Source: a bacterium
Lineage (GTDB): Bacteria > Zhuqueibacterota > Zhuqueibacteria > Zhuqueibacterales > Zhuqueibacteraceae
Direction: 5' to 3'
NCBI GenBank assembly: GCA_022072515.1
Contig: JAJVHT010000069.1
Span: forward strand, 30,910-94,909
Length of the DNA: 64,000 nt
In this document: positions 29,148 through 52,752 of the stretch, in pieces
How the letters are laid out: the number at the start of each line of letters is the position of its first letter
Position numbering within the stretch: the first letter of the stretch is position 1
Program-made: the position numbers and the translations under genes
Notes under the pieces: generated by a model
Databases searched by the model: none
Seen by the model: only the letters and a program-made list of their open reading frames with translations
Told to the model about the DNA's origin: nothing

Positions 29148-31466
29148 TTACTTCTGCAACGTCACTTTCCGCACGATCGTCTGCGGCCCGACCTGCAAGC
29201 GATAGAGGTAAACGCCCGAGCTGACTTCCCGCCCCGAATCATCCCGACCGTTCCACCGCGCCAATTTGTATCCCGGCGTTTGCGTTTCGTGAATCAATAA
29301 TCGGACACGCTGGCCCATGACATTGTAAATGCCCAAATGCACCGGCGTTTCTTCCGGCAACGCGTATTCAATCACCGTTTGCGCGTTGAACGGATTTGGA
29401 TAACTCGGTGCGAGTGTGACTCGCTCCGGTTTTTGGGCAGTAATACTCAGCGGCTGCGCCAACGCTGCGGCCGGCGCCGGCAGCTCGCGCGCCGCAGCGG
29501 CCGCATTCATTTGCAAAACCAATTGCGGCTTATCGGCGCCTTCCTTTGAGCTGTATTGCACCGTGGTTGCAGAGTTATTCTGCATGCCGAAACTAAACGT
29601 GCCGTTGCCGGTGAGGGCCGGCGTGACATCCCACTCAACCCACTGCCCGACCGTTACGCTGCCCACCGTACCCAGGGCGCTCCCCGTAAAATTTGGCGCG
29701 TTAGTGGCATTGATGCCGTTCTCGAGCCACGGCGTGGAAGTACTGCGATAATTATTTGAGGTTGTGTAAACCGAACCGCCGCTGTTGCTCGCCACGGTCA
29801 CGCGCAAACGCAGCTTCGCGCTCTGCACCGTGGCGGTTAAGCCGCTCACCACAAACTTCAGATAACTGCGCAGAACCGTCGAAGACTTTTGTAAACGCAG
29901 GGTCGTCGCCGAGCCATTATTCTGCGTGCGATTCGCCGAGTTTATGTATGCATCGGCCGTCGGATTGAAAATTAAATTTTGCGGCGGTGGCGTGACGGTA
30001 AAATCATCCGCGCTCATGGCCGTGCCTCCCGGCGCGGTAACGCTGATTTTGCCGGTGGTGGCGCCGGCGGGAACATCGGCGCGCAGGCTCGAATTTGACA
30101 TGACCGTCACAGTGCTCGCGGCGACACCATTGAAAGCAACTTGCGTCGCGCCAGTAAAATTCGCGCCGGTGATGGTTACTTGGGTGCCAACCACGCCATT
30201 GGTAGGATTAAAAGAAACAATGCCCGGCGGCAGCGGCGGGGTCAGGACGAAATCATCCGCGCTGGTTGCCGTACCGCTGGGATTGGTGACCGTAATTTTC
30301 CCGGAGGTTGCGCCCGCCGGCACCTCCACTTGAATTTCCGTATCGGAGGCGATGGTGAAACTGCTCGCCGCCATGCCATTAAAAGCAACCTGGGTTGCCG
30401 TATTGAACGAGCTGCCAATAATTGTCACGGCCGTACCAATAGCTCCCGACAATGGACTGAAAGACGAGAGGACCGGCGCCGGCGGCGGCGCCACGCTCGA
30501 TCTGACAAAAAAAGCATCCGGCTGCGCGCCATTGATCGCTTTGAAATAAAAGCGCGCCATATCCGGTTGGCCGTTATAATTGAACTCGCCAAACAGGGCG
30601 CCGTAGGTGGCGTTCTGCGTCGAGGTGTAAATGCTCGCCCACCAGGCGCCGCTCAGTTTTTGCGAGCGGATGCTTTTGCCGCCCAGCCCTGAAACGAAAA
30701 CAAAGCTTCTGCCCTCATCCGCCGGCGTGTTCGCATCGTCTTTGGCGAGGACCAACGTGTTCGAGGTGCTGGCCACGGTTTGATTTTGACAACTGCTCAG
30801 CAGATGCGTCCGGCTGTAAGAATGTTCATGCGCAGTCGCAATGATGGCCCCGCCTTTTCGCGCTTCTTCGTAAACGGGCCAGCCCGTGTCGTCGCCCTTG
30901 TCGCCGACTTGCATGAGCTTCATGTTTTTGTGCCAACTGCTGATGCTCCAAATGGAATTATCCACCGCCAGCTTGTCACGAATGTAAATGTCGTGGCCGC
31001 TGCCGGTGACGCCGGGCGCGGTCAAAACGAAAAAAATGCCGCTATAATTAAATGAAGATTTGACGCCCAGATCTCCATCCCACGTGATGCCCAGCCGGTT
31101 CATGCGCGCGATCAAGAACGATTGATAACCACTGGCGCCATAAAAATTGCTCTTATCGTGGTTTCCAATCGACGCGAAGTATGGAAAATTCGCGCCTAAC
31201 ACGCTGGTGATCAAATTATCCCACGCCGCCGCGTTGTCGCCATAGTCGAAATCGCCGGAATGCACGACGGTTTGCGCACCTTCATTTTTGATGAGATTCA
31301 AGACCGCGATCGCATTCGCTCCCGTGCCTTGATCGCCGATAAAAGCGACCTTGAAATTGGCCGGCGTTTGCGATGTTTGCGCCAGCAGCGTCGAGACACT
31401 CACGCTGGCGAAAGCAGCCATACCGAGAAGCATAAGCCTTCTCTGCAAAAAACGGATCCCTTCCAT
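29148..31466 (-). CDS. Secreted calcineurin-like metallophosphoesterase with two IPT/TIG-like repeats, a beta-rich module and T9SS C-terminal sorting domain
   Basis: Signal peptide MEGIRFLQRRLMLLGMAAFASVSVSTLLAQ. Metallophosphoesterase motifs: VAFIGDQGTG, HSGDFDY, GNHD. Two ~80-aa repeats (FSPLSGAIGTAVTIIGSSF...GKITVTNPSGTATS and FNPTNGVVGTQVTITGANF...GKISVTAPGGTAMS). The C-terminus (YPNPFNAQTVIEYALPEETPVHLGIYNVMGQRV...GVYLYRL) is T9SS-CTD-like. Confidence 0.8.
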   Translation of the reverse strand: MEGIRFLQRRLMLLGMAAFASVSVSTLLAQTSQTPANFKVAFIGDQGTGANAIAVLNLIKNEGAQTVVHSGDFDYGDNAAAWDNLITSVLGANFPYFASIGNHDKSNFYGASGYQSFLIARMNRLGITWDGDLGVKSSFNYSGIFFVLTAPGVTGSGHDIYIRDKLAVDNSIWSISSWHKNMKLMQVGDKGDDTGWPVYEEARKGGAIIATAHEHSYSRTHLLSSCQNQTVASTSNTLVLAKDDANTPADEGRSFVFVSGLGGKSIRSQKLSGAWWASIYTSTQNATYGALFGEFNYNGQPDMARFYFKAINGAQPDAFFVRSSVAPPPAPVLSSFSPLSGAIGTAVTIIGSSFNTATQVAFNGMAASSFTIASDTEIQVEVPAGATSGKITVTNPSGTATSADDFVLTPPLPPGIVSFNPTNGVVGTQVTITGANFTGATQVAFNGVAASTVTVMSNSSLRADVPAGATTGKISVTAPGGTAMSADDFTVTPPPQNLIFNPTADAYINSANRTQNNGSATTLRLQKSSTVLRSYLKFVVSGLTATVQSAKLRLRVTVASNSGGSVYTTSNNYRSTSTPWLENGINATNAPNFTGSALGTVGSVTVGQWVEWDVTPALTGNGTFSFGMQNNSATTVQYSSKEGADKPQLVLQMNAAAAARELPAPAAALAQPLSITAQKPERVTLAPSYPNPFNAQTVIEYALPEETPVHLGIYNVMGQRVRLLIHETQTPGYKLARWNGRDDSGREVSSGVYLYRLQVGPQTIVRKVTLQK

Positions 31467-31578: not shown

Positions 31579-33057
31579 TTATTTCCGAATCATGGTGATC
31601 CAATCCTGAACCACCGAAAACGCCAAAGCCATGTTTTTGATGCTCACCGTTTCACGCCGCTTGAGCGCAGCGTGAATTTTCCCCAAAAGAAAAGCCGCTA
31701 CATACCACGCCAACCGCCGGCGGTCAGCGGCCCACGGCACTTGCCGCTGGTAACTCGTCAAATAAAGCTCGATGCTTTCATCCACCGGCGCGGCGGGAAT
31801 GGCATCACTTACTTTTAAAAACGCCAACGAAGCCACGAATTCCGCCACATCATAGAGCGGATCGCCGCAAGCAATCGAATCAAAATCAATGAGCGCCAGT
31901 GCGCCGTCCCGGCACAAAAGCTGCGCCAGCTTAAAGCTGCCGTGAATCGTCGTTTGCGGCATTTCGGCCTCCAACCAGCCAACCGGCGCTTCCAACGTTT
32001 TAACAAAATGCTCCAACTCTTCTCGCCGTTGCGGCAAAAACGGCGCAATGTCGCTCGCATCATCGCAAGCATTGAGAAACACCGCTTGCAGAGACGGCCC
32101 GCGCCGCAGTTGCACGCCGTCAATCACGATCTGATGCAGCGCCGCGAGCATGCCGGCGATTTGTTGCGGAAACGCCGTCCGCGGCAAATTCACCCAACCG
32201 GTTCGCTGCATCATGACATTGAAATCTTCACCTTCCCATGCCTGCTGCCAAACGCTGTGGGCCGCGTCGAGATACGCGATCGGCGCCGGTACATTCAGCC
32301 GCCCGTCATGACAAGCCGGACTCGCACAAATTTTTTGCAAGGCCCGATACACGTGCCAGCCTTGCCCGTCGTCATAAGTTTTGCTATAAAAAATGGGGGC
32401 CAAGCCGGTCGTTGTGGACGCGCTCAGCTCCAGCGTGAAACGCAACACACAGCGTTTACCGGGCATGTATTTAATTTTGTCGATAACCACGTGCTGGCAC
32501 GTGACGCCGTCCGGCAAACCCAAACCGGCACGATTGGCTTCGATTTGTTGCATGATCCACGCCGGCTCCAAAAGTTGGCCGAGATAAGGCAGCTTGCGAT
32601 CATACGGAAACGCGTACAGCACCATATCCATTTCCGGCCACACGTTGACGGGTTTCCAAAAACCGCAGCCCGGCCAGGTGTCCGGCGTTTCACGCCAATC
32701 CTTGCCGCGCTTGCAGGGCATTTGGGCCTGAAACCACATCGCATAATTTTTCTGCCGATGCTCGCGATCACGGCAACGCACGGTGTAGGTGATCTCACAA
32801 CTCTTTCCCGGCTTGTGGTAAACTTTGCCGACGGCGACAGTGTCGATCAACAGCGCATGGCCGGGATACTCCCGCTGAAAAAACTCCTGCAAGGCCGGTT
32901 TCATCCACACCGCATCCAGCGCGCGCGCCAACTGCGGCAGATGTTCATCCTGTCCGTCCTGCTTTTTGCGCTTGCGCGGCAAGCGCGCGGCGCCGGTGTT
33001 TTTAGGGTCGTCTGCAAGCATGCTTTGTTGTATTTCGTTGGGTTGGCATCTCTGCAA
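31579..33057 (-). CDS. Kinase-fold (APH/CotS-like) protein K1, long form with duplicated N-lobe; catalytic Asp replaced
   Basis: 492 aa. The C-lobe reads TIHGSFKLAQLL...LIDFDSIACGDPLYDVAEFVASL. Two N-lobe-like units: VGKVYHKPGKSCEITY and IDKIKYMPGKRCVLRF...IFYSKTY. The track start 33057 is TTG; an alternative ATG is at 33021. Confidence 0.7.
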   Translation of the reverse strand: MQRCQPNEIQQSMLADDPKNTGAARLPRKRKKQDGQDEHLPQLARALDAVWMKPALQEFFQREYPGHALLIDTVAVGKVYHKPGKSCEITYTVRCRDREHRQKNYAMWFQAQMPCKRGKDWRETPDTWPGCGFWKPVNVWPEMDMVLYAFPYDRKLPYLGQLLEPAWIMQQIEANRAGLGLPDGVTCQHVVIDKIKYMPGKRCVLRFTLELSASTTTGLAPIFYSKTYDDGQGWHVYRALQKICASPACHDGRLNVPAPIAYLDAAHSVWQQAWEGEDFNVMMQRTGWVNLPRTAFPQQIAGMLAALHQIVIDGVQLRRGPSLQAVFLNACDDASDIAPFLPQRREELEHFVKTLEAPVGWLEAEMPQTTIHGSFKLAQLLCRDGALALIDFDSIACGDPLYDVAEFVASLAFLKVSDAIPAAPVDESIELYLTSYQRQVPWAADRRRLAWYVAAFLLGKIHAALKRRETVSIKNMALAFSVVQDWITMIRK

Positions 33058-33163
33058 TAAGGAACAGTCGCAAATTCCAACACCAGGGCGATACTGAAAC
33101 GCTGATCCTTATGGCCGCTGTGCATGAGATTCCGTTCGAACAGAGATGCAACCTCATTCCAAC

Positions 33164-34279
33164 TCAGTTTAAAGTTTCCGGCATAGCGGCAAACTTCTCC
33201 GAAGTTTGCCGCAACATCGCCGTGAATTTCGCGAGCACGCATTCGGCGGAATAATGTTCCAGCAAATAAGCGCGCGGCGAATAGTTCTGATACGTATCCA
33301 GCAATTCCGCCAGTCCGAGATGAAACTCCGCCGGCGTTTTGATCAAACCCGCCGCCGGGCCGACATAACGGCTGCCGGCCCACAATTCCGCATTCACCAG
33401 CACCGGCACATTGGCGGCCATGTATTCCAAAATCGCGCGCGGCGCGGCATCCAACGTGGCGCACATCACGCCGATTTTTGCCTGATTCACATAACGATTC
33501 ACTTCCGCCTTCGGCACTTCGCCGGTAAAATGCACCGCGAGATTCAGCTCGCGCGCCAATTTCTCCAACTCGGCGCGATTGCCTTTACGATCGTCGCCAA
33601 TGCAAATACAACGCAACTGGCGCTCCGGCAATTTCGCCATCGCCCGCAACAACAATTCATGATTTTTGCGTTCGCGCAAATAAGCGACGTAGCAAATGTC
33701 ATAAATTTTTTCTCCGGGCAGCGGATAATGCGTGGCACGGTAATCAATGAGCTTGTCCCAAATCGCACAGTGGATTTGCGGGCAAACCCGCTTGACTTCT
33801 TCCACCTCCCAAGCTTCATCGACTAAACAAAGATCGTAACGCGGCAAGGCTTTGATTTTTTCCGGCCGCCAATCTTTCGAGTAAACCATTTTAAAACTGC
33901 CGGGGCAGCAGTCGAAAATTTGCGCCAGATATGGCGGATAATCCGGGCCTTCAACCCAAATGATATCGGGTTGTCCGGTGCGGCGAATATACCGGGGCAG
34001 CTCTTCCGAAGTCAAATCTTCCCGACCGGGAAACAGCAACACCGGCAACTGCCCCGGCACCGCGACTTCCTGAAACGCCTGATTCCAAAATTTCCACTCC
34101 TCGGCGCCGGTGAGAAAGTGCCGTTGCTGCAAGCCCATAATGATATTTTTCGAACTGCTGCCGGCCTTCGCTGAGATTTTCATCTGTTCCAGCGCCGCGC
34201 CATCCAAAGCCGGCGCGGCTTGATTTTCCCGCGTAAAGACAGTGCTTTCTGTTTTGGTGCGAACAAATGCCAATCGCAT
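33164..34279 (-). CDS. GT-B fold glycosyltransferase (GT4-like C-terminal half)
   Basis: C-terminal pattern: RKNHELLLRAMAKL...LRCICIGDD...HFTGEVP...ATLDAAPRAILEYMAANVPVLV. ATG 34279 avoids overlap with the upstream gene (stop at 34302). Confidence 0.55.
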   Translation of the reverse strand: MRLAFVRTKTESTVFTRENQAAPALDGAALEQMKISAKAGSSSKNIIMGLQQRHFLTGAEEWKFWNQAFQEVAVPGQLPVLLFPGREDLTSEELPRYIRRTGQPDIIWVEGPDYPPYLAQIFDCCPGSFKMVYSKDWRPEKIKALPRYDLCLVDEAWEVEEVKRVCPQIHCAIWDKLIDYRATHYPLPGEKIYDICYVAYLRERKNHELLLRAMAKLPERQLRCICIGDDRKGNRAELEKLARELNLAVHFTGEVPKAEVNRYVNQAKIGVMCATLDAAPRAILEYMAANVPVLVNAELWAGSRYVGPAAGLIKTPAEFHLGLAELLDTYQNYSPRAYLLEHYSAECVLAKFTAMLRQTSEKFAAMPETLN

Positions 34280-34301
34280 CGGGGCAACAATTCCTTTGAG
34301 C

Positions 34302-35678
34302 TTAAATCGCCTGCAGCCAATCTGCCAAGACTTCAAAAATCGCGTCGCGTTTGGCCATGGCCGGCCTGTCCAAATTTTTCATCGTGTCGTGCATTTTGCT
34401 CAGCAGCGCCGAAATCGCATAAAAAGCCAACCGCGCCGGCGGCAGTTTCCAAGGCACATGCCGTTCATAGCTTTTTATAAACAACGCTGCCGCTTGCGCC
34501 AAACGCTGCCGCGAATGGCCGGCGGTGAATTCAAGATACTGCAACGAGGCCATGAACTCCGCCACATCATACAGCGGATCACCCAACGCCACGGCGTCGA
34601 AATCTACCAACGCCAACTCGTGCTGGCGCGCGACAAATTGCTCGAGGCGAATCGCACCGTGAATCGGGGTGACCGGCGACTCGGCGGCGCCGGGCAACAA
34701 CATTTCCCGCCGCGCTTTGAGGCGGGCCAAAATTTCATCGAGATGTGGCTGGCATGGCGGCAACAGCCATCCCAGCATTTGCGCGTCTTCCTCCGCCGAA
34801 TCAAAAGCGCGCTCGAGTGTGTTCGCCGGCGGCAACTGCTCGCACTGGCTTTGATGAAAGCTCGCGATGCCGGCCGCCAAACGCGGAAATAATTCTTCCC
34901 AATCGGCAGTATCAAGCTGCGCCATGAGCGGGCGGCCTTCCCACGGCGTTTGCCACAACGTATTTGCCGCTTCGAGATGCAGCAACGGCCGCGGAATGTC
35001 GATGGCGTGCCGGAGGCGCGCATAAACCTGTTGCAAGACTTCATAATGAAACCGGCTCATGCCATCGCTGTAGGTCTTGCTAAAAAACGAAAGCGCGCGT
35101 TCCTCTCCAGCGGAATTTTGCAAACGGGCGTGATAGCGCAACACGCAACGCTTGCCCGGCATGTATTTCACGCGCACAAAATTTGTCTGCACGCCCCGCC
35201 AATTTCCCGCCAATCCGAACGCCGCGAGATTCGCTTCGATGTGCGCCTGCACAAAACCGGGATCGGCGGCTTTGACCAATCCCGCCATGTCAGGATCATT
35301 GGGAAACGTCCACACCACCATTTCGAGATCGGACCACAGGCTCACCGCTTGCCAAAGGCCGTTTTGCAAATTTCCGGCGGCGCGCGCGGTTTCATAGTGC
35401 CGGCGTGCTTGGCCGGCCCGCACCAGTTTGCCCAAGAACCATTGGTCCATTTTTTCCCCGCGCGTGTTGCGCAGATTCAGACGATACAGCAGCCGGCAGC
35501 GTTTGCCGAGCCGATGTTGGATCCGCTCGAGGACGCAGCTTTCGACGCGTGCTTCCAGCCGCGCCAGCGCCGCGTGAAATTTCTCCGCGAAGATCGGCGT
35601 CATCGCGTCCGCATCGGTTACAGTGGCGAGAGCCGGCAACCGGTCATCTCGCCAGATTTTTTCTGCCAGCGGTTGCAT
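34302..35678 (-). CDS. Kinase-fold protein K2, long form with duplicated N-lobe; catalytic Asp replaced
   Basis: 458 aa. PIHGAIRLEQFV...LVDFDAVALGDPLYDVAEFMASL. N-lobe units: LERIQHRLGKRCRLLY...WFLGKL and VRVKYMPGKRCVLRY...SFFSKTY. The ATG directly abuts the TAA of K3. Confidence 0.7.
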   Translation of the reverse strand: MQPLAEKIWRDDRLPALATVTDADAMTPIFAEKFHAALARLEARVESCVLERIQHRLGKRCRLLYRLNLRNTRGEKMDQWFLGKLVRAGQARRHYETARAAGNLQNGLWQAVSLWSDLEMVVWTFPNDPDMAGLVKAADPGFVQAHIEANLAAFGLAGNWRGVQTNFVRVKYMPGKRCVLRYHARLQNSAGEERALSFFSKTYSDGMSRFHYEVLQQVYARLRHAIDIPRPLLHLEAANTLWQTPWEGRPLMAQLDTADWEELFPRLAAGIASFHQSQCEQLPPANTLERAFDSAEEDAQMLGWLLPPCQPHLDEILARLKARREMLLPGAAESPVTPIHGAIRLEQFVARQHELALVDFDAVALGDPLYDVAEFMASLQYLEFTAGHSRQRLAQAAALFIKSYERHVPWKLPPARLAFYAISALLSKMHDTMKNLDRPAMAKRDAIFEVLADWLQAI

Positions 35679-37076
35679 TTAAAAGAGTCCCTCACTTCCT
35701 GCGAGTATTGCCGCCGCCCAGTTCAACAATTGGTCGACTTTTTCGGCATGATTCTCTTTCGCCAAACGAATGCATTTCTTCGCTTGTTTGCCCAACAGAT
35801 GCGCCGCGGTTTGCCAGACCAACACGTCGTTTGGCAAACCCCACGGCGCCGCCGCCGCATAAGCCCGGCAAAATTGCCGAATCGCCGCGCGGCTGCGCGC
35901 GGGCGAAAGCCCGTCTTTGACTGACTCTCCTTTCAACGGCAAATACAACAGATGCGCCACGAAACTCGCCACATCGGCAATCGGATTGCCGAGAACGAAA
36001 TCATCAAAATCGATCAAAGCCAATTTGCCGTCGACCACGAGAAATTGCGAAAGCCGAAACGCGCTGTGAATCAGCGCCGGCGGCAAAGACGGCAAGCCGT
36101 CATATTTTTCCTGCAACGTGCGCGCCAGGGCTTCGACACGCGGGCGGTAGGCCGGATTGAAATTGCCCAAAATTTCCACGGCTTCGGCAGCTTCCGCGAT
36201 GACGTGCTCATCGCCGCGCGCCGGCAAGCCGGCGATTTGGCATTGATGGATGCCGGCCAGCCCGGCGCCGATCTGCGCGGCCACACGCTCAAGATCAAGC
36301 GCGCTGAGATGATCGTCCGCATTCTTGCCTTGCAAACCGCGCACGAAAGTGGTATTCATTTCCGCCGCAAAAAACAACGGCTCCGGAATCAACAACCCGC
36401 CGGCTTGGCAAACCGGCGCCTGCCACAACGCTTGCATGGTTTTGAAAATCAATTCGCCGTTGGTTTTCGGATTGAGCATTTTGCTAAAGATCACCTGCGG
36501 CGCCGCGCCCTCGAAAAGCAACCGATGGCGCAATGTGCAGCGGTCGCGGGGAACGTATTTAATGCGCTTGGTAAAAATCCGGCGCAATCTGGCCTCGGGC
36601 GGCAGATGCAAATACGGCCATAACGATTGCACGACTTCCTTAAAATTTTCGCGATTGGTCAACCGGTGCAGATGCCGCAGCTTGGGGTCATTGGGATAAC
36701 CCCACAAGATCATGTTCAACTGCGGCAAAAAATGCAAAGCCGGCAACACCTTGGGTTGAAACAGCGCGTGGCGGAGCGCCTTGGCATAATTCGCGGCGGC
36801 CTCGTTCTGCGGCAAATGAGGCTCGACCATCGCAAAACAAAGCGGCCGCTGCATTTTGCCTTTTGCCAGATCTTTGACGACCAGTTGATAATTCAAATGA
36901 CACTTTTTGCCGGGTTCATAACGCATTTGATTCAGCAACACATGGTGCAGCTCCAACCGGCCATCGCCAAAGCCGGGAAGCTCGCGCTGAAAAATTTCCT
37001 TCATCGCCAGCGTATTGGTAACGACCGCCAATTGCGGGAAAACCGTGTCATCGTATTTTTCGGCAAATTTGAGCAT
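35679..37076 (-). CDS. Kinase-fold protein K3, long form with duplicated N-lobe; catalytic Asp replaced
   Basis: 465 aa. LIHSAFRLSQFL...LIDFDDFVLGNPIADVASFVAHL. N-lobe units: LNQMRYEPGKKCHLNY and KRIKYVPRDRCTLRH...VIFSKML. Confidence 0.7.
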   Translation of the reverse strand: MLKFAEKYDDTVFPQLAVVTNTLAMKEIFQRELPGFGDGRLELHHVLLNQMRYEPGKKCHLNYQLVVKDLAKGKMQRPLCFAMVEPHLPQNEAAANYAKALRHALFQPKVLPALHFLPQLNMILWGYPNDPKLRHLHRLTNRENFKEVVQSLWPYLHLPPEARLRRIFTKRIKYVPRDRCTLRHRLLFEGAAPQVIFSKMLNPKTNGELIFKTMQALWQAPVCQAGGLLIPEPLFFAAEMNTTFVRGLQGKNADDHLSALDLERVAAQIGAGLAGIHQCQIAGLPARGDEHVIAEAAEAVEILGNFNPAYRPRVEALARTLQEKYDGLPSLPPALIHSAFRLSQFLVVDGKLALIDFDDFVLGNPIADVASFVAHLLYLPLKGESVKDGLSPARSRAAIRQFCRAYAAAAPWGLPNDVLVWQTAAHLLGKQAKKCIRLAKENHAEKVDQLLNWAAAILAGSEGLF

Positions 37077-37116
37077 GTGTTTGAGAACCGCGTGTTTCCA
37101 ATCTGATTAACGGCAA

Positions 37117-38463
37117 TTAGGCGCCAAGCTGATCGGCAATTTTGAGCAGCCGGCTCACCAGGCTCGTATCCATGCGCTTGACGGATTTATAGACTTGGCT
37201 GGCGATCAAATGACTCGCCGCAAACCAATTGATGCGCGCCGGCGATAACGGCACGGCTGCCGCGCGATTGTACGACGCGCAGAAATCGGCTATCGTCTGC
37301 TCGGCCGCTTCCGGAGCGATTTTCCAATCGGCCTTCATTTTATAAAGATGCGCGATAAAACGGCCGACATCGTAGCCGGGATCGCCAAGGCTGGCGCCGT
37401 CAAAGTCAATGAACGCGATGCCTTTGGCCGTGGCAAAAATATGGCTGAATTTGAACGACGCGTGCACCGGCGTCACCGGGCCGGAACCGAATTGCGCTGC
37501 GGCGGCCAAAAGTTTTTCGCCGGTTTGCGCGCAACGCGCCGCATACTCCGGAAAAGTTTTACTGATCTTTTTCATCGCCTGACGCAACTCTTCCACTTGC
37601 GCCGCAACCGTTCTTTCCACCGGCAGTTGCAAAGGGATGCTGTGAAACGCCGCCAGGCGCTCGCCAATCTCCTGCGCCACCTGCGAAAAATCCGGCATAC
37701 GCTCGGCGATTTTTGCCAACGGCTCACCGGCGATCATTTCCTGCCACAGCACGTGCCGCCCGGTGTCGTAACTATACGGCTCCGGTAAAATTAAGCGGCC
37801 CTGCCGGCGCGCTGCACTTGTCCAAATTTGCTGCATGAGCGTGAACGCCTTGCGGCCTTCCGCAGGCCGATAGGCCTTGCCAAAAATCCCGGCGGCAGCG
37901 CCATCGGCCAGGGTCAGATGAAAAAAATAACCACACCGCATACCGGGAACATACTTGCTTTGCACCGCGCGAATGGTGACCGGCGCCTGGCGCAGGCCGA
38001 ATTTTTCCGGCGCGGCCCGCATGTCGGCCAAAACTTTTTCGGCATCGGCCATCTTCGCCACTCCCGGCACTTTCGGATCATTGGGATAAGCCCACAGCAC
38101 CGTCAACCAGTCCGGCAGGTAAACCACTGCCGGCCCCCATGCCGGCGGCGTCCAGCTTTTCTGTTGTTGGCGCGCAAAAATTTTTTCAGCGCGCGCCGCC
38201 CGCCGGAACAACTTTCCGTAAAAACGCTGTTGCCCAAGCTCGCGCTGCTGGCGGTCACGGATGCTGGCCGTAAACAAAATCACACAAGCCGCACCGGGGC
38301 GATAATTCAACTGCTCGATGGCGCAATTGGCCACGTGCAGATCACCCGCGGCAAACGCCGGCCCCAAATATTGATTCAGCTTTTGCGCCAGTGTCGCCGT
38401 TTCCGCCATTTCGCGCAATTGCGGAAACTCACAATCGGCGGGAATGTTTGCCAGCTTGGCCAT
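37117..38463 (-). CDS. Kinase-fold protein K4, long form with duplicated N-lobe; catalytic Asp replaced
   Basis: 448 aa. PVHASFKFSHIF...FIDFDGASLGDPGYDVGRFIAHL. N-lobe units: IEQLNYRPGAACVILF...RFYGKLF and VQSKYVPGMRCGYFF...GIFGKAY. Confidence 0.7.
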   Translation of the reverse strand: MAKLANIPADCEFPQLREMAETATLAQKLNQYLGPAFAAGDLHVANCAIEQLNYRPGAACVILFTASIRDRQQRELGQQRFYGKLFRRAARAEKIFARQQQKSWTPPAWGPAVVYLPDWLTVLWAYPNDPKVPGVAKMADAEKVLADMRAAPEKFGLRQAPVTIRAVQSKYVPGMRCGYFFHLTLADGAAAGIFGKAYRPAEGRKAFTLMQQIWTSAARRQGRLILPEPYSYDTGRHVLWQEMIAGEPLAKIAERMPDFSQVAQEIGERLAAFHSIPLQLPVERTVAAQVEELRQAMKKISKTFPEYAARCAQTGEKLLAAAAQFGSGPVTPVHASFKFSHIFATAKGIAFIDFDGASLGDPGYDVGRFIAHLYKMKADWKIAPEAAEQTIADFCASYNRAAAVPLSPARINWFAASHLIASQVYKSVKRMDTSLVSRLLKIADQLGA

Positions 38464-38514: not shown

Positions 38515-40470
38515 TTAAAATTCTCTAAACGTTTCTGGCGCAAATTCGACTTCGCCCAAATCCATCCGCTTTTCTTTTTTGCCCTCAGCACCAGCTGTTG
38601 CCGGCGCCAGCGCCAATTCCCGGGCACGGCCGCATTGCAATTCATACAGCTCGCGGTAAGGCGCGCAAGTTTTCATCAACTGCTCGTGCGTGCCGAAACC
38701 GGCGAGGCGGCCTTCCTCCAAAACCAAAATTTTGTTGGCGCGGGCAAGCGTCGAAAATTTATGCGCGATAATGATCGTTGTTTTGCCTGCCGTCAATTCA
38801 TCGAGAGCCGCGTGCATCTTCGCTTCCGTCTTGGCGTCCAAAGCCGTCGCCGGTTCGTCAAGAATCACAATCGGCGTATTGCGAATGATGGCGCGCGCAA
38901 TATTGAGCCGCTGCTTCTGCCCGCCGGAGAGATTTTCGCCGCCTTGCAAAATCATGGTGTCGTAGCCCTGCGGCATTTGCTCGATGAATTCATGCGCTTG
39001 CGCCAGCTTGGCCGCGTTCACGACCTCGTCATCGGTGGCGTCGATCTTGCCAAAAGCGATATTCTGCCGCACGGTTTTGTTGAAGAGTTTCGCTTCCTGC
39101 AACAACACGGTCAATTGGCCGCGCAGCGATTTGAGCGTAAATTCGCGAATGTCGGCGCCGTCGATCAACACCTGCCCCTGCTGCGGGTCATAAAAACGCA
39201 ACAATAAACTCACGAGCGTGGATTTGCCGGCGCCGCTGTGGCCGACGAGCGCGACGGTTTCACCCGGCGCGATCGCGAAACTGACTTGCTTGATAACGTC
39301 AATATCCTTTTTATAAGCGAAACTTACCCGGCGGAATTCGATGCGACCGGTGAACGCCGGCGCCGGAACCGCATTCGGCGCGTCTTCCATGACGAACTCA
39401 CAATCAATCAGCTCCAAAATGCGCTCGGCGGCAACTTGGGAGCGCGCCAGGTCGAGCAACATGCCGGCAAATTTATCAAGCGGACTGTAAAGTTTTTTCA
39501 AATACGCGACAAACAACACCAGCGTACCGGGCGTAATGGCGCCGCTGAGCGCGAGGCTGCCGCCGTAATAGACCACCAAACAGGTGCCGATCGCAACCAG
39601 CGTATCGGTGACGCGGGAAAAAACCTTCGAGAGCCGCGTCGCCGTGAGCGTCGACTCGAGGCTTTGCCGATTTTCAGTGGCGAATCGGGCCTGCTGCGAA
39701 TCTTCGCGGCCATACGCCTGCACCAAAGCCATCGCGGTGACGCTTTCGGTGATCATGGAGGCGATATTGCTTTCCGTGTTGCGTTTTTTCTTGGTGGCTT
39801 TATGTACTTTCGTGCCGAAACGCCGGTTGTAATAATACATGATCGGAATAACACTGAACGCCATCAGCGCCAAACGCCAGTTCATCGTCCACATCAGGCC
39901 GACGTGCGAGCCGATGGTAACCAGACGATAAACGACATTCTGCGGCACGCCGAGCAGAATCGTCGGCAGTTCGCGCAAATCCGAAATCATGCGATACACC
40001 AGATCGCCGGAGCGAAACGATTCATGAAACGCCAGCGACAACCTTTGCATGTGGCCGAAAATGCGCTCGCGAATTTCCCGAATCATTTTCGCCGAGACCA
40101 TCATCATGCCGACTTTGTGAAAATAAGAAACGAAACTGTCGGCCACATTCAACCCGATAAAAGCCAGCGCGAGCACGGCGAGCAAAGTCGACGGCTCGGC
40201 GCCAAACCAGTTCGTCAAGAAAGCCGCTTGCGGCGGTAATGGATTTTTCAAAATCACGTAATCCATGATCAGCTTCAACGGCCAGGGCGTCAGCAAAGCG
40301 AACCCGACGGTCAACAGCAAGCCGAAATAAGCGACGAGAAGCTGCCGCCAGTGGTTTTTGTAGTGATTGCCAAAAACCTTATAAACCCGCAACAGAATCC
40401 GGTAATCGATCCGATCGACGTCGATCGGCTGTTTGCCAAGTTTGCGTTTAAATTGTGCGCGACCTTGCAT
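38515..40470 (-). CDS. ABC exporter half-transporter (MsbA/type IV exporter-like, TMD-NBD)
   Basis: 651 aa, six N-terminal TM segments. Walker A GHSGAGKSTL, signature LSGGQKQRLNIARA, Walker B IVILDEP, H-loop IIIAHKFST. Confidence 0.9.
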   Translation of the reverse strand: MQGRAQFKRKLGKQPIDVDRIDYRILLRVYKVFGNHYKNHWRQLLVAYFGLLLTVGFALLTPWPLKLIMDYVILKNPLPPQAAFLTNWFGAEPSTLLAVLALAFIGLNVADSFVSYFHKVGMMMVSAKMIREIRERIFGHMQRLSLAFHESFRSGDLVYRMISDLRELPTILLGVPQNVVYRLVTIGSHVGLMWTMNWRLALMAFSVIPIMYYYNRRFGTKVHKATKKKRNTESNIASMITESVTAMALVQAYGREDSQQARFATENRQSLESTLTATRLSKVFSRVTDTLVAIGTCLVVYYGGSLALSGAITPGTLVLFVAYLKKLYSPLDKFAGMLLDLARSQVAAERILELIDCEFVMEDAPNAVPAPAFTGRIEFRRVSFAYKKDIDVIKQVSFAIAPGETVALVGHSGAGKSTLVSLLLRFYDPQQGQVLIDGADIREFTLKSLRGQLTVLLQEAKLFNKTVRQNIAFGKIDATDDEVVNAAKLAQAHEFIEQMPQGYDTMILQGGENLSGGQKQRLNIARAIIRNTPIVILDEPATALDAKTEAKMHAALDELTAGKTTIIIAHKFSTLARANKILVLEEGRLAGFGTHEQLMKTCAPYRELYELQCGRARELALAPATAGAEGKKEKRMDLGEVEFAPETFREF

Positions 40471-40494
40471 GTTGGGTTTCGGAATCTATCCTTA

Positions 40495-42426
40495 TTAGTT
40501 CACCGTGAGGGGCGCCGGCACCAGACGTCCATTATCGCCGCCGGCTTCCATTTCGGGCATGGCCGTTGTCTTTTGCCGGCCAAATTGCAATTCATAAAGC
40601 TCACGATAGGGCGGGCTGTTGTGCAAAAGCTGCTCATGCGAGCCCAAATGCGCCAATTGCCCTTCTTCCAACAAGAGAATTTTGTCGGCATTGGCGACGG
40701 TCGAAAATTTATGCGCGATGATAAACGTCGTCTTGCCGCGAGTGAGACGATGGATGGCGGTATTGATTTGGGCTTCCGTCCGCGCATCCAGGCCGGTGGT
40801 CGGCTCATCGAGGAACACGATCGGCGTCTGGCGCACGACCGCGCGCGCGATGTTGAGGCGTTGCCGCTGCCCGCCGGAAAGATTTTCGCCGCCTTCGTGC
40901 ATCATCGTGTCATAACCTTTCGGCATCTGTTCGATAAAATCATGCGCTTCCGCCAATTTTGCCGCGGTGCGAATCTCCTCATCGGTCGCGTCAAGTTTTC
41001 CGAAGGCGATATTCTCATGCACAGTTTGATGAAACAATCGCGCTTCCTGCAGCAAGATGGTCATTTGTTGGCGCAAAGATTTGAGCGTATAGCGGCGAAT
41101 ATTCACGCCGTCAATAAGAATTTCTCCTTGTCGCGGGTCGTAGAAACGCAGCAACAAGCTGATCAGGGTGGATTTGCCGGCGCCGCTGTGGCCGACGAGC
41201 GCCACCGTTTCGCCCGGCTCTACGACAAAATTGAGATCTTTTAAAACATCGTGACCCGGTTTGTAAGCGAAGCTGACATTTCTGAATTCGATGCGGCCCT
41301 GCAGCGCCGGGGCCGGGATGGCATCCGGATCATCTTGCATGACCATTTCATTTTCAACCAGCTCGAGCAAACGCTCCGCCGCCACCAATGATTTGGCCAG
41401 GCCAAAGAACAGGCTGGTGAATTTTTCAAACGAGCCCACAACCGCCCGCATGTAGTTCACAAAAACCCACAACGTGCCGACGGTGATCGCGCCGCCGAGC
41501 GCAAATTGGCCGCCCCAATATAGCACGCCCGCCGTGCTGAGCACGATGAGAAAATCACTGAGGCGGCTATAGGTTTGATGCATTCGCAGGGTGCGCAATT
41601 GCGCTTCCAAATTCAGCAAATTGCTGGCGCCCAAGCGATAGCGTTCGCTTTCTTCACGGCCATACGCCTGCACGACGGCCATCGAAGTCAAGTTTTCGAC
41701 GATTACCGAGGCCAGCTCACCGGCGCGTTTGCGGGCTCGTTTCATATATTTTTTCATGCCGGCGGTGAAATAACGCGTAAACCAGTAAACCAGCGGCATG
41801 GTGCTGCAGGCAATCAGCGCAAGACGCCAATCAAGGGCCAACATCAGGCCGACATAAGCGACGAACGTCACCACCCGCTGGATAAAATCCTGGGGAAAAT
41901 CAATGAGGATACTTTTCATCTCACTGACATCCGACGTCATCAGATAGACGAGATTGCCGGAGCTGGCGGATTCGTGAAACGACAGCGAGAGGCGGTTGAA
42001 ATGAGAAAAGACGCGTTCGCGGATGTCGGCGGTCATGCGATCTCCGGCGCTCGACACCCAATACTTGTTAATAAACGAAAAGTAGGCTTCGCCAACGGTA
42101 ATGCCGATAATGGCGAGCGCCAGCCCGAGCAAAACCAGCTTGGGCTGTTCAGTAAACAGCGGATTCAGAAAAGCGGCCGGACCTTCCAACGGCGCCCGCA
42201 AAATTAAATTGTCCAAAATGAACTTGAGCGGCCATGGCGACAAAACTTCCAGCCCAATGGCAACCAGCAAGCTCAAATAAGCCACGGTCAGAGTTTTCCA
42301 ATGCTTTTTATAATGCCGTCCGAATACTTTATACACCTTGAGCAAGCCGCCGCGGTCAAGCGGACCAGCGTCGTCCTTTTTCTTGCCAAGGGCGCGTATT
42401 TCGGCGAGGTCTTCCAAAAAGCGCAT
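40495..42426 (-). CDS. ABC exporter half-transporter (MsbA-like), paralog; probable heterodimer partner
   Basis: 643 aa. GHSGAGKSTL, LSGGQRQRLNIARA, IVFLDEP, FIIAHKFST. It lies 24 nt upstream of its paralog. Confidence 0.9.
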   Translation of the reverse strand: MRFLEDLAEIRALGKKKDDAGPLDRGGLLKVYKVFGRHYKKHWKTLTVAYLSLLVAIGLEVLSPWPLKFILDNLILRAPLEGPAAFLNPLFTEQPKLVLLGLALAIIGITVGEAYFSFINKYWVSSAGDRMTADIRERVFSHFNRLSLSFHESASSGNLVYLMTSDVSEMKSILIDFPQDFIQRVVTFVAYVGLMLALDWRLALIACSTMPLVYWFTRYFTAGMKKYMKRARKRAGELASVIVENLTSMAVVQAYGREESERYRLGASNLLNLEAQLRTLRMHQTYSRLSDFLIVLSTAGVLYWGGQFALGGAITVGTLWVFVNYMRAVVGSFEKFTSLFFGLAKSLVAAERLLELVENEMVMQDDPDAIPAPALQGRIEFRNVSFAYKPGHDVLKDLNFVVEPGETVALVGHSGAGKSTLISLLLRFYDPRQGEILIDGVNIRRYTLKSLRQQMTILLQEARLFHQTVHENIAFGKLDATDEEIRTAAKLAEAHDFIEQMPKGYDTMMHEGGENLSGGQRQRLNIARAVVRQTPIVFLDEPTTGLDARTEAQINTAIHRLTRGKTTFIIAHKFSTVANADKILLLEEGQLAHLGSHEQLLHNSPPYRELYELQFGRQKTTAMPEMEAGGDNGRLVPAPLTVN

Positions 42427-42503: not shown

Positions 42504-43499
42504 TCACGCGGCGCTTTTCAAGAAAGCGCTGCCGGCCTCGAGAAGTTGCCGCACCTGTTGTCGCCAATCGGCAACCGCTGGCGCGCGGGTGCAAATCACC
42601 GCTCGGCGCAAATATGCAAAAGCCTGATAGGCCTGCAATCCAGTGAGCATCAGTTGAGGCCGGCGAGCATTATAAGCTTCCAGGAAAGCGTTCTGTAATT
42701 TTTTGCTGCGTGAGCCAAAATGAACTTGCAACGTGACCAAAAAATTGGCAATATCCAGCGCCGGCGTCGAAAGGCATAAGCCGTCGAAATCAATAAAAAA
42801 GGCGCGGTCGGCTGCGAGAAAAATTTGCGCAAGATTCAAATCGCCGTGCACTGGGCACACCGGCGCCGGCGATTCCCTTTCCTCCTGCACCAAACGGATC
42901 AGCAGCGTCTCGACCAATGGCGCGATTTCCGGGTATGCCGCGCTCAACACTTCCGGGCCGGGATGGCAATATTTCTTGAGATGGTCGTCGAGGGTTTTCT
43001 TTTCGCCGACCGCGGCCGTCACCTGATGCAACGTCGCCAAATTTTGAGCGACACGGCGCATCGCCACCACCAGCGTTTCCGGCTCTGCCAGCTCAGATAA
43101 AGCCTGGCCGGGAACAGCACTTTGCACGAGCATGCCCAACTCCGGCTCATACGCCAAAGGCTCCGGCATGCCTAACGGCGCGCCGCCGGCGTGCGCCCCG
43201 GCGCCATCATCACCGGGCGCCGCTTGCCAAAGCTGCCGCCAATTGGCAAAAATGCTTTCACCGCGATTTTTGCGATACATCTTGCCGATGAGGCGGCGCG
43301 GGCGCGCCGGTTTCCCGGCGAACCACAAGAGGTATTCAATCACGCAACGCTTGCCCGGCGTATATTTTAAAACACGGCTGCGAACTTGCCGAAGAGAGTT
43401 CTCTCGCAGCGCCGAATTCCATTGTGCCGAGGCAAACCAGGACAGCATTGCCTCGTCGTCGAGGGCGCGTTTGAGGCCGGGCAGCTTGCGATCATTCAA
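42504..43499 (-). CDS. Kinase-fold protein K5, short form with intact HGD catalytic motif
   Basis: 331 aa. One N-lobe (RVLKYTPGKRCVIEY...LIGKMY), PVHGDLNLAQIF and FIDFDGLCLSTPALDIANFLVTL. The track start is TTG, overlapping the upstream TGA by 4 nt. Confidence 0.7.
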   Translation of the reverse strand: MNDRKLPGLKRALDDEAMLSWFASAQWNSALRENSLRQVRSRVLKYTPGKRCVIEYLLWFAGKPARPRRLIGKMYRKNRGESIFANWRQLWQAAPGDDGAGAHAGGAPLGMPEPLAYEPELGMLVQSAVPGQALSELAEPETLVVAMRRVAQNLATLHQVTAAVGEKKTLDDHLKKYCHPGPEVLSAAYPEIAPLVETLLIRLVQEERESPAPVCPVHGDLNLAQIFLAADRAFFIDFDGLCLSTPALDIANFLVTLQVHFGSRSKKLQNAFLEAYNARRPQLMLTGLQAYQAFAYLRRAVICTRAPAVADWRQQVRQLLEAGSAFLKSAA

Positions 43500-43960: not shown

Positions 43961-44096
43961 AAAAATTCTCCACTGATGAGTTATTTTATTTTTAATCGAA
44001 CATCTTTTTTATAGCCAAACACCGACACAACTTTTCAGAATGGATGCAATGCCATCACCGCGGCCAATCTGCCGGCGGTGATAGGGGCGCGCCGGC

Positions 44097-45718: not shown

Positions 45719-45870
45719 GACGCTACCCTTCAAAGCTGAATTTCGACGACACGTTTTGAATTAACGCTGCAACGCTTCCGCGTTGCATTCCGTTTACTTT
45801 GTATCTTCAAGCACTCACCCTCCAGACGCCAATCAGCAACCGCAAACGTCCGGACGGTTTTACGAATTTT

Positions 45871-52701: not shown

Positions 52702-52752
52702 CAATTTCTCCTTACGGAATTTTATTCCGCCTTAAATTTCCCGTCTTGCCAA

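Follow-up and report, generated by a model that had tools for sequence, protein, structure and literature searches.

The window, a 64,000-nt stretch of bacterial DNA, contains six kinase-fold genes (K1–K6), all on the minus strand where the first-pass annotation had placed them (Table 1). All six encoded proteins exceed the cut-off of the Pfam APH model (PF01636), and K2 is 100% identical to the public hypothetical protein ALAOOOJD_01398. K2 and K3 abut with zero gap, and the DUF5666 genes share 4-nt overlaps with K6 and with K5; in the case of K5, the overlap is between its start and the stop of the DUF5666 gene lying upstream. Judged from sequence, K1–K4 are cytoplasmic kinase-fold proteins of the APH/CAK clan. 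Each is composed of a duplicated, degenerate N-lobe 'cap' (N1), a nucleotide-binding N-lobe (N2) and a C-lobe, in that order, and they belong to a conserved, uncharacterised family from sugar-polymer export gene clusters of uncultured bacteria.

Table 1. Features of the locus in window coordinates, with catalytic loops identified in the MAFFT alignment
Feature	Coordinates	Strand	N1	N2	Catalytic loop	[IV]DFD	Remarks
Metallophosphatase–TIG–CBM96 protein	29148..31466	-					Secreted, T9SS-tailed (Pfam); directly downstream of K1
K1	31579..33057	-	32608-32970	32227-32607	HGSFKLAQ, 31921-31944, residues 372-379	IDFD, 31879-31890	Long, Asp-less; 492 aa as ORF, 480 aa in public annotation
GT4b	33164..34336	-					GT4-like glycosyltransferase between K2 and K1; Pfam Glycos_transf_1, E 3.8e-19
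K2	34302..35678	-	35304-35666	34929-35303	HGAIRLEQ, 34638-34661, residues 340-347	VDFD, 34596-34607	Long, Asp-less; 458 aa
K3	35679..37076	-	36696-37070	36324-36695	HSAFRLSQ, 36045-36068, residues 337-344	IDFD, 36003-36014	Long, Asp-less; 465 aa
K4	37117..38463	-	38086-38454	37720-38085	HASFKFSH, 37441-37464, residues 334-341	IDFD, 37399-37410	Long, Asp-less; 448 aa
ABC exporter pair	38515..42426	-					Two MsbA-related half-transporters, 651 and 643 aa; Pfam ABC_membrane + ABC_tran
K5	42504..43499	-			HGDLNLAQ, 42825-42848, residues 218-225	IDFD, 42783-42794	Short, one N-lobe, intact HGD
DUF5666 proteins	43496..44606	-					Two small proteins between K6 and K5, 154 and 169 aa; Pfam PF18914
K6	44603..45733	-			HGDFHLGQ, 45029-45052, residues 228-235	IDFD, 44987-44998	Short, one N-lobe, intact HGD

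Active-site residues and the doubled N-lobe

The MAFFT alignment bears out the loops read earlier. The HxD Asp is replaced by a small residue in K1–K4 and is followed by K or R at +2, while K5 and K6 read HGD. The claim that the Asp is always replaced by Ser or Ala holds within K1–K4 and fails across homologues, in which the position is A, S, T, C or G. The proposed register of the loop stands: in a profile of 78 long forms, HG-A aligns without gaps on the HGD of glucosamine kinase 6HWJ (HGDFHVGQ...VVDFD) and of macrolide 2'-phosphotransferase 5IGH, so the absence of the Asp does not stem from misalignment. A search for an acidic residue that could substitute for the Asp and is conserved across all long forms found none; a Glu at +4 (R-x-E-Q; Glu346) is conserved in the K2 group only and is lacking from K1, K3 and K4.

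The metal-binding motif and the N-lobe Lys are retained, as had been reported. Specifically, [IV]DFD lies 18 residues downstream of the loop His in all six proteins, all six carry the beta-3 Lys, with K226 (K1 numbering) being an invariant column, and H340, D359 and D361 are invariant among long forms. The long forms further retain a Gln or His at +7 from the loop His and the P-loop hairpin KYxPGKRC, which is better conserved in them than in the short forms. K1–K4 are thereby predicted to keep all the residues required for binding Mg-ATP.

The ~120 extra residues of the long forms represent a genuine tandem duplicate of the N-lobe, in accordance with the first-pass annotation. Residues 10-121 of K2 align to residues 127-241; hhalign profiles of the two copies, built from 88 and 101 homologues, match over 112 columns (Prob 99.5%, E 5.6e-23), compared with E 0.2-0.34 in control comparisons with the C-lobe. 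In the AF2 model of K2 (pLDDT 95, pTM 0.91), the same secondary-structure string occurs twice. The hairpin consensus proposed for both copies is only approximate, since LGKRC (K2 copy 1) and PRDRC (K3 copy 2) depart from it. A Lys had also been described after each hairpin: the second-copy Lys (K201) is kept in 77/78 orthologues, whereas the first-copy position varies (K 40, R 20, Q 10 and E 3, n = 78).

The implied link between duplication and Asp loss is a local one. Among the best-scoring cluster representatives of the wider database and the related loci, 38 proteins with two N-lobes keep the Asp (HGDLHLKN, HRDLKLGN and others). Many of these two-lobe relatives are from other phyla, so the doubled N-lobe is older and more widespread than the loss, and the link holds only in clusters of the K1–K4 type.

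The doubling is most probably the counterpart of the 'N-terminal cap subdomain' architecture known from maltokinase and glucosamine kinase (Mak/GlcNK), which are the best PDB matches by sequence. Maltokinase 4U94 is the best whole-length Foldseek match (E 3.4e-10, ~500 aligned columns), and 6HWL is also matched. The Mak/GlcNK structures compared (PDB 4U94, 5JY7 and 6HWJ; PMC4306142, PMC6520443) share with the long forms the three-part build of N-terminal cap, intermediate N-lobe and C-lobe. Their cap comprises helices, three long antiparallel strands and short strands, and their active site is laid out as H-G-D-x-H-x-G-Q ... D-F-D, in which the Gln and the first Asp of DFD bind Mg (PMC4306142, PMC6520443); the K6 loop is of this kind. 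Unlike Mak/GlcNK, K1–K4 are without the Asp of HGD and carry R/K at +2, the TM-score is only 0.44, and the NCBIfam maltokinase and GlcN-kinase models match far below cut-off or not at all. Neither the N1 profile nor the isolated N1 model retrieved the Mak/GlcNK cap, and the Mak cap is described as unique and cystatin-like, whereas N1 of the long forms is demonstrably an N-lobe copy. The context differs as well, TreS and GlgE being absent around K1–K4.

Conservation, gene neighbourhood and fusions

We compared 43 related loci from KSB1, Calditrichia, Eisenbacteria and Rokubacteria. In these loci, 92/93 distinct two-lobe proteins lack the Asp and carry R/K at +2, the basic residue already noted as conserved in K1–K4, whereas 33/33 one-lobe proteins keep the Asp. 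Sequence comparison places the long forms in at least five ancient orthogroups, and each paralog has full-length orthologues with group-specific loop signatures (HG[ST]FK[LIVM]AQ in the K1 orthogroup) in several candidate phyla. The dN/dS of K1–K4 is 0.13-0.16, similar to that of neighbouring genes (0.12-0.19), and the catalytic-loop/DFD segment is the best-conserved part in every orthogroup (0.73-0.82 versus 0.42-0.65 elsewhere). Thus K1–K4 evolve under purifying selection that centres on the active-site segment, a finding that upholds the earlier suggestion of a functional subfamily rather than decay.

The conserved core around the long forms, which number four to eight per cluster, contains two Asp-bearing short kinases, two DUF5666 proteins, a GT4-like enzyme and the ABC exporter pair. 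The exporters, probably a heterodimer, are the most conserved neighbours (34/42 related loci, ~60% identity), and NCBIfam gives them sub-threshold MsbA_rel matches only. GT4b is found in 19/42 loci at ~66% identity. The metallophosphatase protein, present in 12/42 loci at ~73% identity and occupying the same position in locus L007, possibly belongs to the K1–K4 system. No signal peptide is evident at the N-termini of the DUF5666 proteins, read by eye.

Gene fusions tie the long forms to the ABC exporter, GT4, each other and Asp-bearing kinases. In particular, the exporter carries a K4-like domain at its C-terminus in three loci (L002, L032 and L041; 1076-1083 aa), GT4b is fused to K1 in an 841-aa protein from two independent assemblies (L005/L006), P0218 joins a K4-like to a K1-like protein, and P0307 joins an Asp-less to an Asp-bearing kinase. 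K6–DUF5666 fusion proteins also occur (P0204 and P0214), and L031 has an 876-aa K1-type ORF with a ~400-residue N-terminal extension.

Possible roles of the Asp-less long forms

We tentatively favour, at somewhat less than even confidence, a role for K1–K4 as Mg-ATP-binding, non-canonical (pseudokinase-type) subunits of a machine of several kinases, glycosyltransferase and exporter. K1–K4 would no longer carry out ordinary hydroxyl phosphorylation and would sit, loaded with ATP, in a multi-kinase complex close to the membrane. Each paralog would be specific for one glycoconjugate intermediate, probably an anionic one (phosphorylated or sulfated), and the long forms would link the catalytically active short kinases with glycosyl transfer and export. 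We favour this role because the motifs are in register with those of solved kinases, the Mg-ATP residues and above all the active-site segment are conserved under purifying selection, and core synteny, fusions and the contrasting Asp patterns of two-lobe and one-lobe proteins point the same way. In JAK JH2-JH1, Fam20A-Fam20C, HER3 and ILK, an Asp-less, nucleotide-binding kinase fold is paired or fused with an active paralog. The proposed mode would resemble the JAK JH2-JH1, Fam20A-Fam20C and ILK type, to which the P0307 and P0218 fusions are comparable by analogy only, the lineages being unrelated and the substrates there being proteins.

A precedent within the clan is provided by the BSK/CotS proteins, CAK/APH members with several paralogs per genome, of which some lack the catalytic Asp; these catalytically dead members are associated with glycosyltransferase genes, and a non-catalytic role has been predicted for them (PMC2860764). 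BSKs have no N-lobe duplication or ABC exporter link and belong to Firmicutes spore coats. Class V lanthipeptide and thioamitide clusters likewise combine an active LanK kinase, a dead kinase-fold paralog and ABC transporters; the comparison took in both the LanK kinases and the LanX/TvaE/RosX kinase-fold cyclases (PMC12291118; PDB 9DK2 and 8JSU). LxmK is the best NCBIfam match of all six K proteins, at sub-threshold scores ~10-fold below the family cut-off, and its Asp221, Gln226 and Asp241 have the same D...Q...D layout as K5 and K6 (PMC12291118). Unlike LanK systems, the K1–K4 cluster has no precursor peptide, lyase or decarboxylase gene. These clan scaffolds also argue against a pseudokinase subunit: BSK pseudokinases lose further motifs, variably, and LanX/TvaE lack catalytic, Mg-binding and ATP-binding residues, whereas K1–K4 lose the Asp alone. 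Every orthogroup preserves one and the same almost complete active site, as would sooner be expected of an enzyme than of a scaffold.

It is accordingly quite possible, if somewhat less probable, that the long forms are Mg-ATP-dependent enzymes that transfer a group to an acceptor for which no general base is required. An anionic oxygen might serve as acceptor, as in a phosphate monoester, a sulfate or a uronic-acid carboxylate; alternatively, a re-oriented ATP could permit nucleotidyl transfer. The change of Asp to a small residue plus R/K would turn a hydroxyl-activating site into an anion-binding one. The strict retention of both Mg ligands, the beta-3 Lys and the P-loop, and of one loop configuration over phylum-level times in at least five orthogroups, argues for such chemistry, as does the co-variation of the Asp with the basic position, the single Asp-bearing K2-clade member (HGDFQVEQ) also lacking the basic residue. 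The same pattern, with beta-3 Lys and metal-binding Asp kept and a small or hydrophobic residue in place of the HxD Asp, is found in the AMPylase SelO/YdiU (WHLK / HGVMNTDN / DYG; PMC12599244, Table 1). However, SelO is of a protein-kinase-like family and lacks the doubled N-lobe, and no sequence similarity was detected between the long forms and SelO, SidJ or known atypical transferases. Each paralog would serve one intermediate, for instance converting a sugar-1-P into an activated donor for the fused GT4; the GT4b–K1 fusion fits such donor supply, and the window yielded no gene for a sugar nucleotidyltransferase. PAPS genes and sulfotransferases, together with heparinase II/III-like genes in related clusters, indicate anionic glycans. 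Against this, the long paralogs outnumber the two short kinases, and the basic residue need not signal an anionic acceptor, because it also stands beside the Asp in relatives (HRDLKLGN type) and contacts the gamma-phosphate in classical protein kinases.

That K1–K4 are ordinary but slow kinases, still phosphorylating hydroxyls, is unlikely. The remaining phosphotransfer machinery is intact, and kinase Asp-to-Ala mutants retain residual activity; the proton would be handled by Ser/Thr at the Asp position, by the substrate or by another residue such as the conserved Glu346 of the K2 group. Yet the Asp position is often occupied by Ala, Cys or Gly and hence has no common side chain, and the +4 Glu is confined to one group. 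The Asp is kept in the short kinases of the same clusters and in most two-lobe relatives elsewhere, which shows that the family's normal activity needs it.

More doubtful still is self-protection, in which the long forms would bind, without modifying, a bioactive product or its phosphorylated pro-form, and either sequester it or deliver it to the ABC exporter. In this scheme the pro-form would be the product of the short kinases, and its activation would take place extracellularly through the secreted metallophosphatase. Two self-resistance kinases, corramycin phosphotransferase and amicoumacin kinase, are among the closest folds, the metallophosphatase is conserved beside K1, a K4-like domain is fused to the exporter, and the window resembles a large natural-product cluster in having NRPS, halogenase and sulfotransferase genes. 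However, these last genes lie outside the conserved core, in just 0-4/42 loci, and sequestration does not require the Mg-ATP ligands to be so strictly retained. Gene decay or misalignment, for which the missing Asp is the one argument, is refuted by the low dN/dS, the ungapped loop alignment and the occurrence of more than 150 distinct Asp-less relatives that are intact and full-length.

Catalytic loop and doubled N-lobe

All six kinase-fold paralogs of the window, the long forms K1–K4 and the short, Asp-bearing forms K5 and K6, score above the cut-off of the Pfam APH model PF01636 (35.6–58.4 bits vs 23.2 bits). None of them reaches a curated NCBIfam model; the top sub-threshold match of all six is LxmK, a class V lanthipeptide kinase. 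An unclassified MAG encodes a hypothetical protein, ALAOOOJD_01398, that is 100% identical to K2. The AF2 model of K2 shows a bilobal kinase fold (pLDDT 95, pTM 0.91) and has 158 matches in the PDB at E ≤ 1e-3; each of the best 50 is a small-molecule kinase of the APH/CAK type or a related one.

A MAFFT alignment of K1–K6 returns the loop sequences exactly as the first-pass annotation had read them, and the retention of the metal-binding DFD and the N-lobe Lys that it described is borne out by invariant H, D-F-D and β3 Lys columns. In K1–K4, the catalytic Asp is replaced by Ser or Ala and the Asn of the Brenner motif HxDxxxxN by Gln or His, while K5 and K6 retain HGD, with Gln at the Asn position. 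Across 78 long forms, the β3 Lys (K201; K2 numbering throughout) is present in 77, and D359 and D361 are invariant. Between the loop His and DFD, no gap interrupts the alignment of the profile of these 78 proteins with glucosamine kinase (GlcNK) 6HWJ (HGDFHVGQ...VVDFD) or with macrolide 2′-phosphotransferase MPH(2′) (HGDLYVGH...IDW), which rules out a mis-register of the catalytic loop against these solved kinases. The Mg ligands of glucosamine kinase are Q305, the Gln of the loop, and D317, the first Asp of DFD (PMC6520443). Their counterparts in K2 are Q347 and D359; the position of Q347 is Gln in 71% of long forms and His in K4- and K7-type loops. A compensating acidic residue at another site is rejected: among the positions conserved only in long forms, none is an Asp or Glu shared by all groups, and a Glu at loop position +4 occurs in the K2 group alone.

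The ~120 extra residues of the long forms, previously ascribed to a tandem N-lobe, are a true internal duplication. Specifically, the profiles of K2 residues 1–125 (N1, the first N-lobe copy; 88 homologues) and 126–250 (N2, the second copy, preceding the C-lobe; 101 homologues) align over 112 columns in hhalign with a probability of 99.5% and an E-value of 5.6e-23, whereas the C-lobe, as a control, aligns with either half at E 0.2–0.34. In addition, the AF2 model contains the order of two helices, three long strands, a helix and two short strands twice. The N1 and N2 HMMs match each other's regions reciprocally in independent family members, which together with the hhalign result and its negative controls rules out that N1 is an unrelated domain. 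The N1 hairpin Cys is present in 76 of 78 long forms and the following Lys is relaxed (K40/R20/Q10/E3 of 78), while the N2 hairpin KYMPGKRC is nearly invariant, with its Cys in 78/78 and the following Lys in 77/78. Because hairpin and Lys conservation differs in this way between the copies, we infer that nucleotide is bound by N2 and that N1 is a structural copy that has degenerated. The β1–β2 (P-loop) hairpin Cys residues of K2, C61 and C178, are also conserved in the short kinases; in fructosamine-3-kinases, a Cys of the P-loop serves as a redox switch (bioRxiv 10.1101/2020.01.13.904870).

Selection, orthogroups and the wider family

Comparison of the window with locus L005, an ~88% identical relative, gives dN/dS values of 0.145, 0.162, 0.127 and 0.150 for K1, K2, K3 and K4, near those of the ABC exporter genes (0.12–0.15) and K5 (0.19). 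Decay of K1–K4 into pseudogenes is ruled out by these values and by many intact orthologues. The view of K1–K4 as a functional subfamily thus stands, and with the catalytic-loop Asp lost from conserved, selected proteins they fit the sequence definition of a pseudokinase, a kinase fold lacking at least one canonical catalytic residue.

A search with K2 yielded 97 homologues, 96 of which have Ala, Thr, Ser or Cys at the Asp position; 95 of these 96 carry Arg or Lys two positions on (+2), the remaining one being the weak last match P0097 (HGSPHVHQ). The sole Asp-bearing homologue, P0081, has the loop HGDFQVEQ, in which the Asp and +2 positions are both changed; it falls inside the K2 clade and looks, from its sequence, like a reversion. 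A scan of species-representative genomes contributed 35 loci; the loci come from KSB1 (including Zhuqueibacter and Coneutiohabitans), Calditrichia, Eisenbacteria and Rokubacteria/Methylomirabilota, and from a single Myxococcales MAG and a single Deferribacteres MAG. Counting distinct sequences over 43 loci, 92 proteins have two N-lobe units, no Asp and Arg or Lys at +2; one protein has two units and keeps the Asp, and 33 have one unit, the Asp and no basic residue at +2.

The four long paralogs of the window fall into separate orthogroups, each recognisable by a stable loop motif, namely HG[ST]FK[LIVM]AQ for K1, HG[ATC]xRxEQ for K2, H[SGNT][AG]FR[LMI][STP]Q for K3 and H[AG]SFK[FS]SH for K4, and a fifth type reads HG[ST][LF]RLNH. 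The most conserved region in every orthogroup is the catalytic-loop/DFD/GDPxYDVA segment (mean 0.73–0.82 vs 0.42–0.65 elsewhere), and long forms vary less than short forms in the P-loop hairpin. A degenerate APH-like protein of ~511–513 aa occurs in three loci (L017 12912-14453, L020 12886-14427 and L032 14969-16504), with the loop HGALGW[GR]S or HGSFGWDS and with CHFE, YRFD or FRFD in place of DFD; of the three copies, only that of L032 has an N-lobe unit recognised by the HMMs, as one weak match of N1 type.

The long-form profile, searched against 1.84 billion cluster representatives, gave 11,737 matches at E ≤ 1e-3 and 1,981 at E ≤ 1e-30, long and short forms counted together. Among the 140 best new representatives, 116 have the N1-N2-C build and ~20 are double-kinase fusions; 84 loop motifs lack the Asp and have Arg or Lys at +2 and 61 keep it, each fusion contributing two motifs to this tally. 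Distinct Asp-less two-lobe proteins now exceed 150. The main Asp-bearing two-lobe type (HGDLHLKN...IDLD) is found in Nitrospinaceae, Bryobacteraceae and Chloroflexi, and a second type (HRDLKLGN) resembles eukaryotic protein kinases; individual Asp-bearing examples are encoded at L043 10001-11446 and L044 3521-5854 and include the proteins P0303, P0265, P0314 and P0324. The many Asp-bearing two-lobe proteins in this search refute a strict link from duplication to Asp loss, which the first-pass annotation had implied and which does not hold in general.

In L043 and L044, the Asp-bearing two-lobe kinases neighbour GT28, GT4, heparinase II/III-like and ABC exporter genes, and L043 also carries an Alginate_exp porin (alginate export). 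Because such kinases sit in clusters comparable to that of the window, the doubled N-lobe is a trait of a larger kinase subfamily, as yet without a name and associated with glycan export, in which the Asp loss is probably a later event. Whether the Asp was lost once was assessed with neighbour-joining trees, none of which carries support values: the long forms of the loci alone form one clade, all two-lobe proteins form a clade to the exclusion of short forms, and with the wider set Asp-bearing long forms nest among Asp-less groups.

Gene neighbourhood and fusions

K1–K4 lie in an operon-like array with GT4b, a GT4-like gene, and, upstream, ABC exporter, short-kinase and DUF5666 genes (Table). 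Around K2 orthologues in 42 loci, counts being limited by 10-kb flanks, the two ABC exporters recur in 34 (~60% identity), short kinases in 34–37, GT4b in 19, DUF5666 in 15, the T9SS-tailed metallophosphatase-CBM96 in 12 (~73% identity), a GT4 in nine and GT28-like genes in eight. Each locus has one to six long forms; in L004/L027, gene callers list up to eight long-form-sized genes, two of them unverified. KSB1 and related uncultured lineages thus share a conserved, unnamed and putative module for glycoconjugate export, built of two short kinases, DUF5666, a variable number of long forms, GT4 and a probable ABC heterodimer.

Table. Features of the kinase block and the surrounding window
Feature	Position	Strand	Remark
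Biosynthetic region	2206-28439 and 47425-58786		one long region, remainder of the window
849-aa ORF	5293-7842	minus	no Pfam match at E ≤ 1e-4
Two flavin halogenases	9256-11927
NRPS C-A-T module	22220-24976
Acyl-CoA dehydrogenase, AMP-ligase, O-methyltransferase			within biosynthetic region
Three sulfotransferases, two GT2 genes, SHMT			within biosynthetic region
Type II thioesterase			within biosynthetic region
Two GT28-like genes			within biosynthetic region
MbtH-like protein	28470-29048	minus	MbtH domain at residues 2-52 of 192
Metallophosphatase-TIG-CBM96	29148-31466	minus	T9SS-tailed, secreted; directly downstream of K1
K1	31579-33057	minus	long kinase-fold ORF
GT4b	33164-34336		between K2 and K1
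K2	34302-35678	minus	long kinase-fold ORF
K2 C178	35145-35147		P-loop hairpin Cys
K2 C61	35496-35498		P-loop hairpin Cys
K3	35679-37076	minus	long kinase-fold ORF
K4	37117-38463	minus	long kinase-fold ORF
Two ABC exporter genes	38515-42426		upstream of K1–K4
K5	42504-43499		short kinase
DUF5666b/K5 overlap	43496-43499		4-nt stop/start overlap
Two DUF5666 genes	43496-44606
K6/DUF5666a overlap	44603-44606		4-nt stop/start overlap
K6	44603-45733		short kinase; array ends at 45733
MacB/HlyD/TolC exporter	50560-55619
ATP sulfurylase and APS kinase	56938-58786

Long forms also occur fused to their neighbours. An ABC exporter is joined to a K4-like domain in L002, L032 and L041 (1076–1083 aa), GT4b to K1 in two independent assemblies (841 aa), a K4-like to a K1-like domain in P0218, and an Asp-less to an Asp-bearing kinase domain in P0307; an 876-aa K1-type ORF in L031 has an N-terminal part of ~400 residues. 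Read as Rosetta-stone links, these fusions tie the long forms to putative partners, and those to the ABC exporter, GT4 and Asp-bearing kinases lead to direct binding-partner hypotheses. K6 is fused to DUF5666 in P0204 and P0214; because of these fusions and the 4-nt overlaps in the window, the short kinases probably partner with, or act on, the small DUF5666 proteins. Reading by eye revealed no signal peptide on the latter, and a literature search on DUF5666 and on this gene combination returned nothing relevant.

The secreted phosphoesterase beside the kinase/ABC block suggests phosphorylation inside, export, and dephosphorylation outside. An anti-phage defence system is rejected, with no PADLOC match, as is the RiPP (class V lanthipeptide) cluster brought to mind by LxmK, whose scores of ~30–40 bits fall far below the cut-off of 315; the gene families identified in the window also include no lyase, decarboxylase or precursor gene, contrary to a RiPP. 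The conserved core excludes the NRPS, halogenase and sulfotransferase genes, which take up the remainder of the window, and genes of the biosynthetic region are mostly not conserved beside the kinase block in other genomes. The MbtH-like protein (~82% identity in four loci) has a C-terminal extension of ~140 residues with no family match.

Comparison with known kinases and proposed function

Among the matches listed, the best whole-length fold match of the K2 model is mycobacterial maltokinase (Mak) 4U94 (E 3.4e-10), and Mak and GlcNK are the only PDB entries aligned over ~500 columns (TM 0.44). The secondary-structure order of K2 equals the published order of cap (N-terminal subdomain), intermediate subdomain and C-lobe in these enzymes. 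Their cap, helices with three long antiparallel strands, was termed novel and cystatin-like (PMC4306142; PMC6520443), and N1 has the same topology. The N1 model alone (pLDDT 93) gave in a Foldseek search just weak VirB8/NTF2/cystatin-like matches (E ≥ 0.028) and no Mak/GlcNK cap, and the N1 profile had no match among PDB sequences. The N-terminal cap, seen as a copy of the N-lobe, suggests a possible origin for the cap domain of Mak and GlcNK. K6 alone matches the Mak model TIGR02457 (24 bits vs 375), K5 alone the GlcNK model NF041273 (17 bits vs 550), and K1–K4 neither. Furthermore, K5 and K6 share the HGD loop with Gln and the DFD/DFE of Mak and GlcNK, whereas K1–K4 lack the Asp.

Other kinase-fold proteins have lost catalytic residues. 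The AMPylase SelO (PMC12599244) reads WHLK / HGVMNTDN / DYG (motif table therein), i.e. it keeps the Lys and DFG-type Asp and has lost the HxD Asp, the pattern of K1–K4 with their Lys and DFD. SelO/YdiU homology of K1–K4 was not detected, either among Pfam and NCBIfam families or among the best 50 of the 158 PDB matches. The bacterial spore kinase (BSK) pseudokinases (PMC2860764) and the LanX/TvaE cyclases (PMC12291118) are catalytically dead members of the APH/CAK clan. Both have lost several catalytic and metal-binding residues, while K1–K4 keep Lys, Gln and DFD; LanX/TvaE lack catalytic, Mg- and ATP-binding residues altogether and sit in RiPP clusters with LanK, a lyase and LanD, a description that does not fit K1–K4.

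In the long forms, the Mg-ATP site residues are intact and the general base is missing, with selection centred on that site. They co-occur with Asp-bearing short kinases, GT4b and the ABC heterodimer, and are occasionally fused to each. We tentatively favour a reading in which the long forms would be ATP-loaded, pseudokinase-type subunits that recognise particular, probably anionic, intermediates and link what K5/K6 phosphorylate to glycosyl transfer and to export.

It is also quite possible that the long forms are still enzymes whose acceptor or chemistry needs no base, as the uniform, near-complete active site in five old orthogroups would indicate. A bolder version, which we consider unlikely, makes them a new class of bacterial kinase-fold enzymes with the general base swapped for a cationic residue, acting on anionic acceptors and passing the product to the fused GT4 and ABC exporter, the doubled N-lobe being the origin of the "unique" maltokinase-type cap; candidate reactions would yield a diphosphate, an NDP-sugar made from the sugar phosphate that the short kinases supply, or, with a uronic acid as acceptor, its acyl-phosphate or adenylate. 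That they are ordinary kinases working slowly is improbable, and we give little credence to product binding for self-protection, linked to the secreted phosphatase.

The long forms are a sizeable, uncharacterised branch of APH/CAK that is atypical, Asp-less and probably cap-bearing. In this branch, selection has preserved one precise change of the active site, loss of the Asp together with a basic residue at +2 while the Mg-ATP ligands stay, in at least five lineages of paralogs and across several candidate phyla. To our knowledge, pseudokinases among bacterial small-molecule kinases have barely been studied, and the discovery of AMPylation by SelO reportedly began from a family with this motif pattern, so the branch is of relevance to kinase and pseudokinase specialists.

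The long-form profile also picks up the ACAD11 kinase domain, whose loop reads HGAFKLDN in PDB entry 8V3U. Because the deposited sequences of 8V3U and 8V3V score differently, the Ala in 8V3U may stem from mutation of the Asp in an HGDFKLDN loop, in which case this characterised small-molecule kinase, too, would combine an Asp with Lys at +2.
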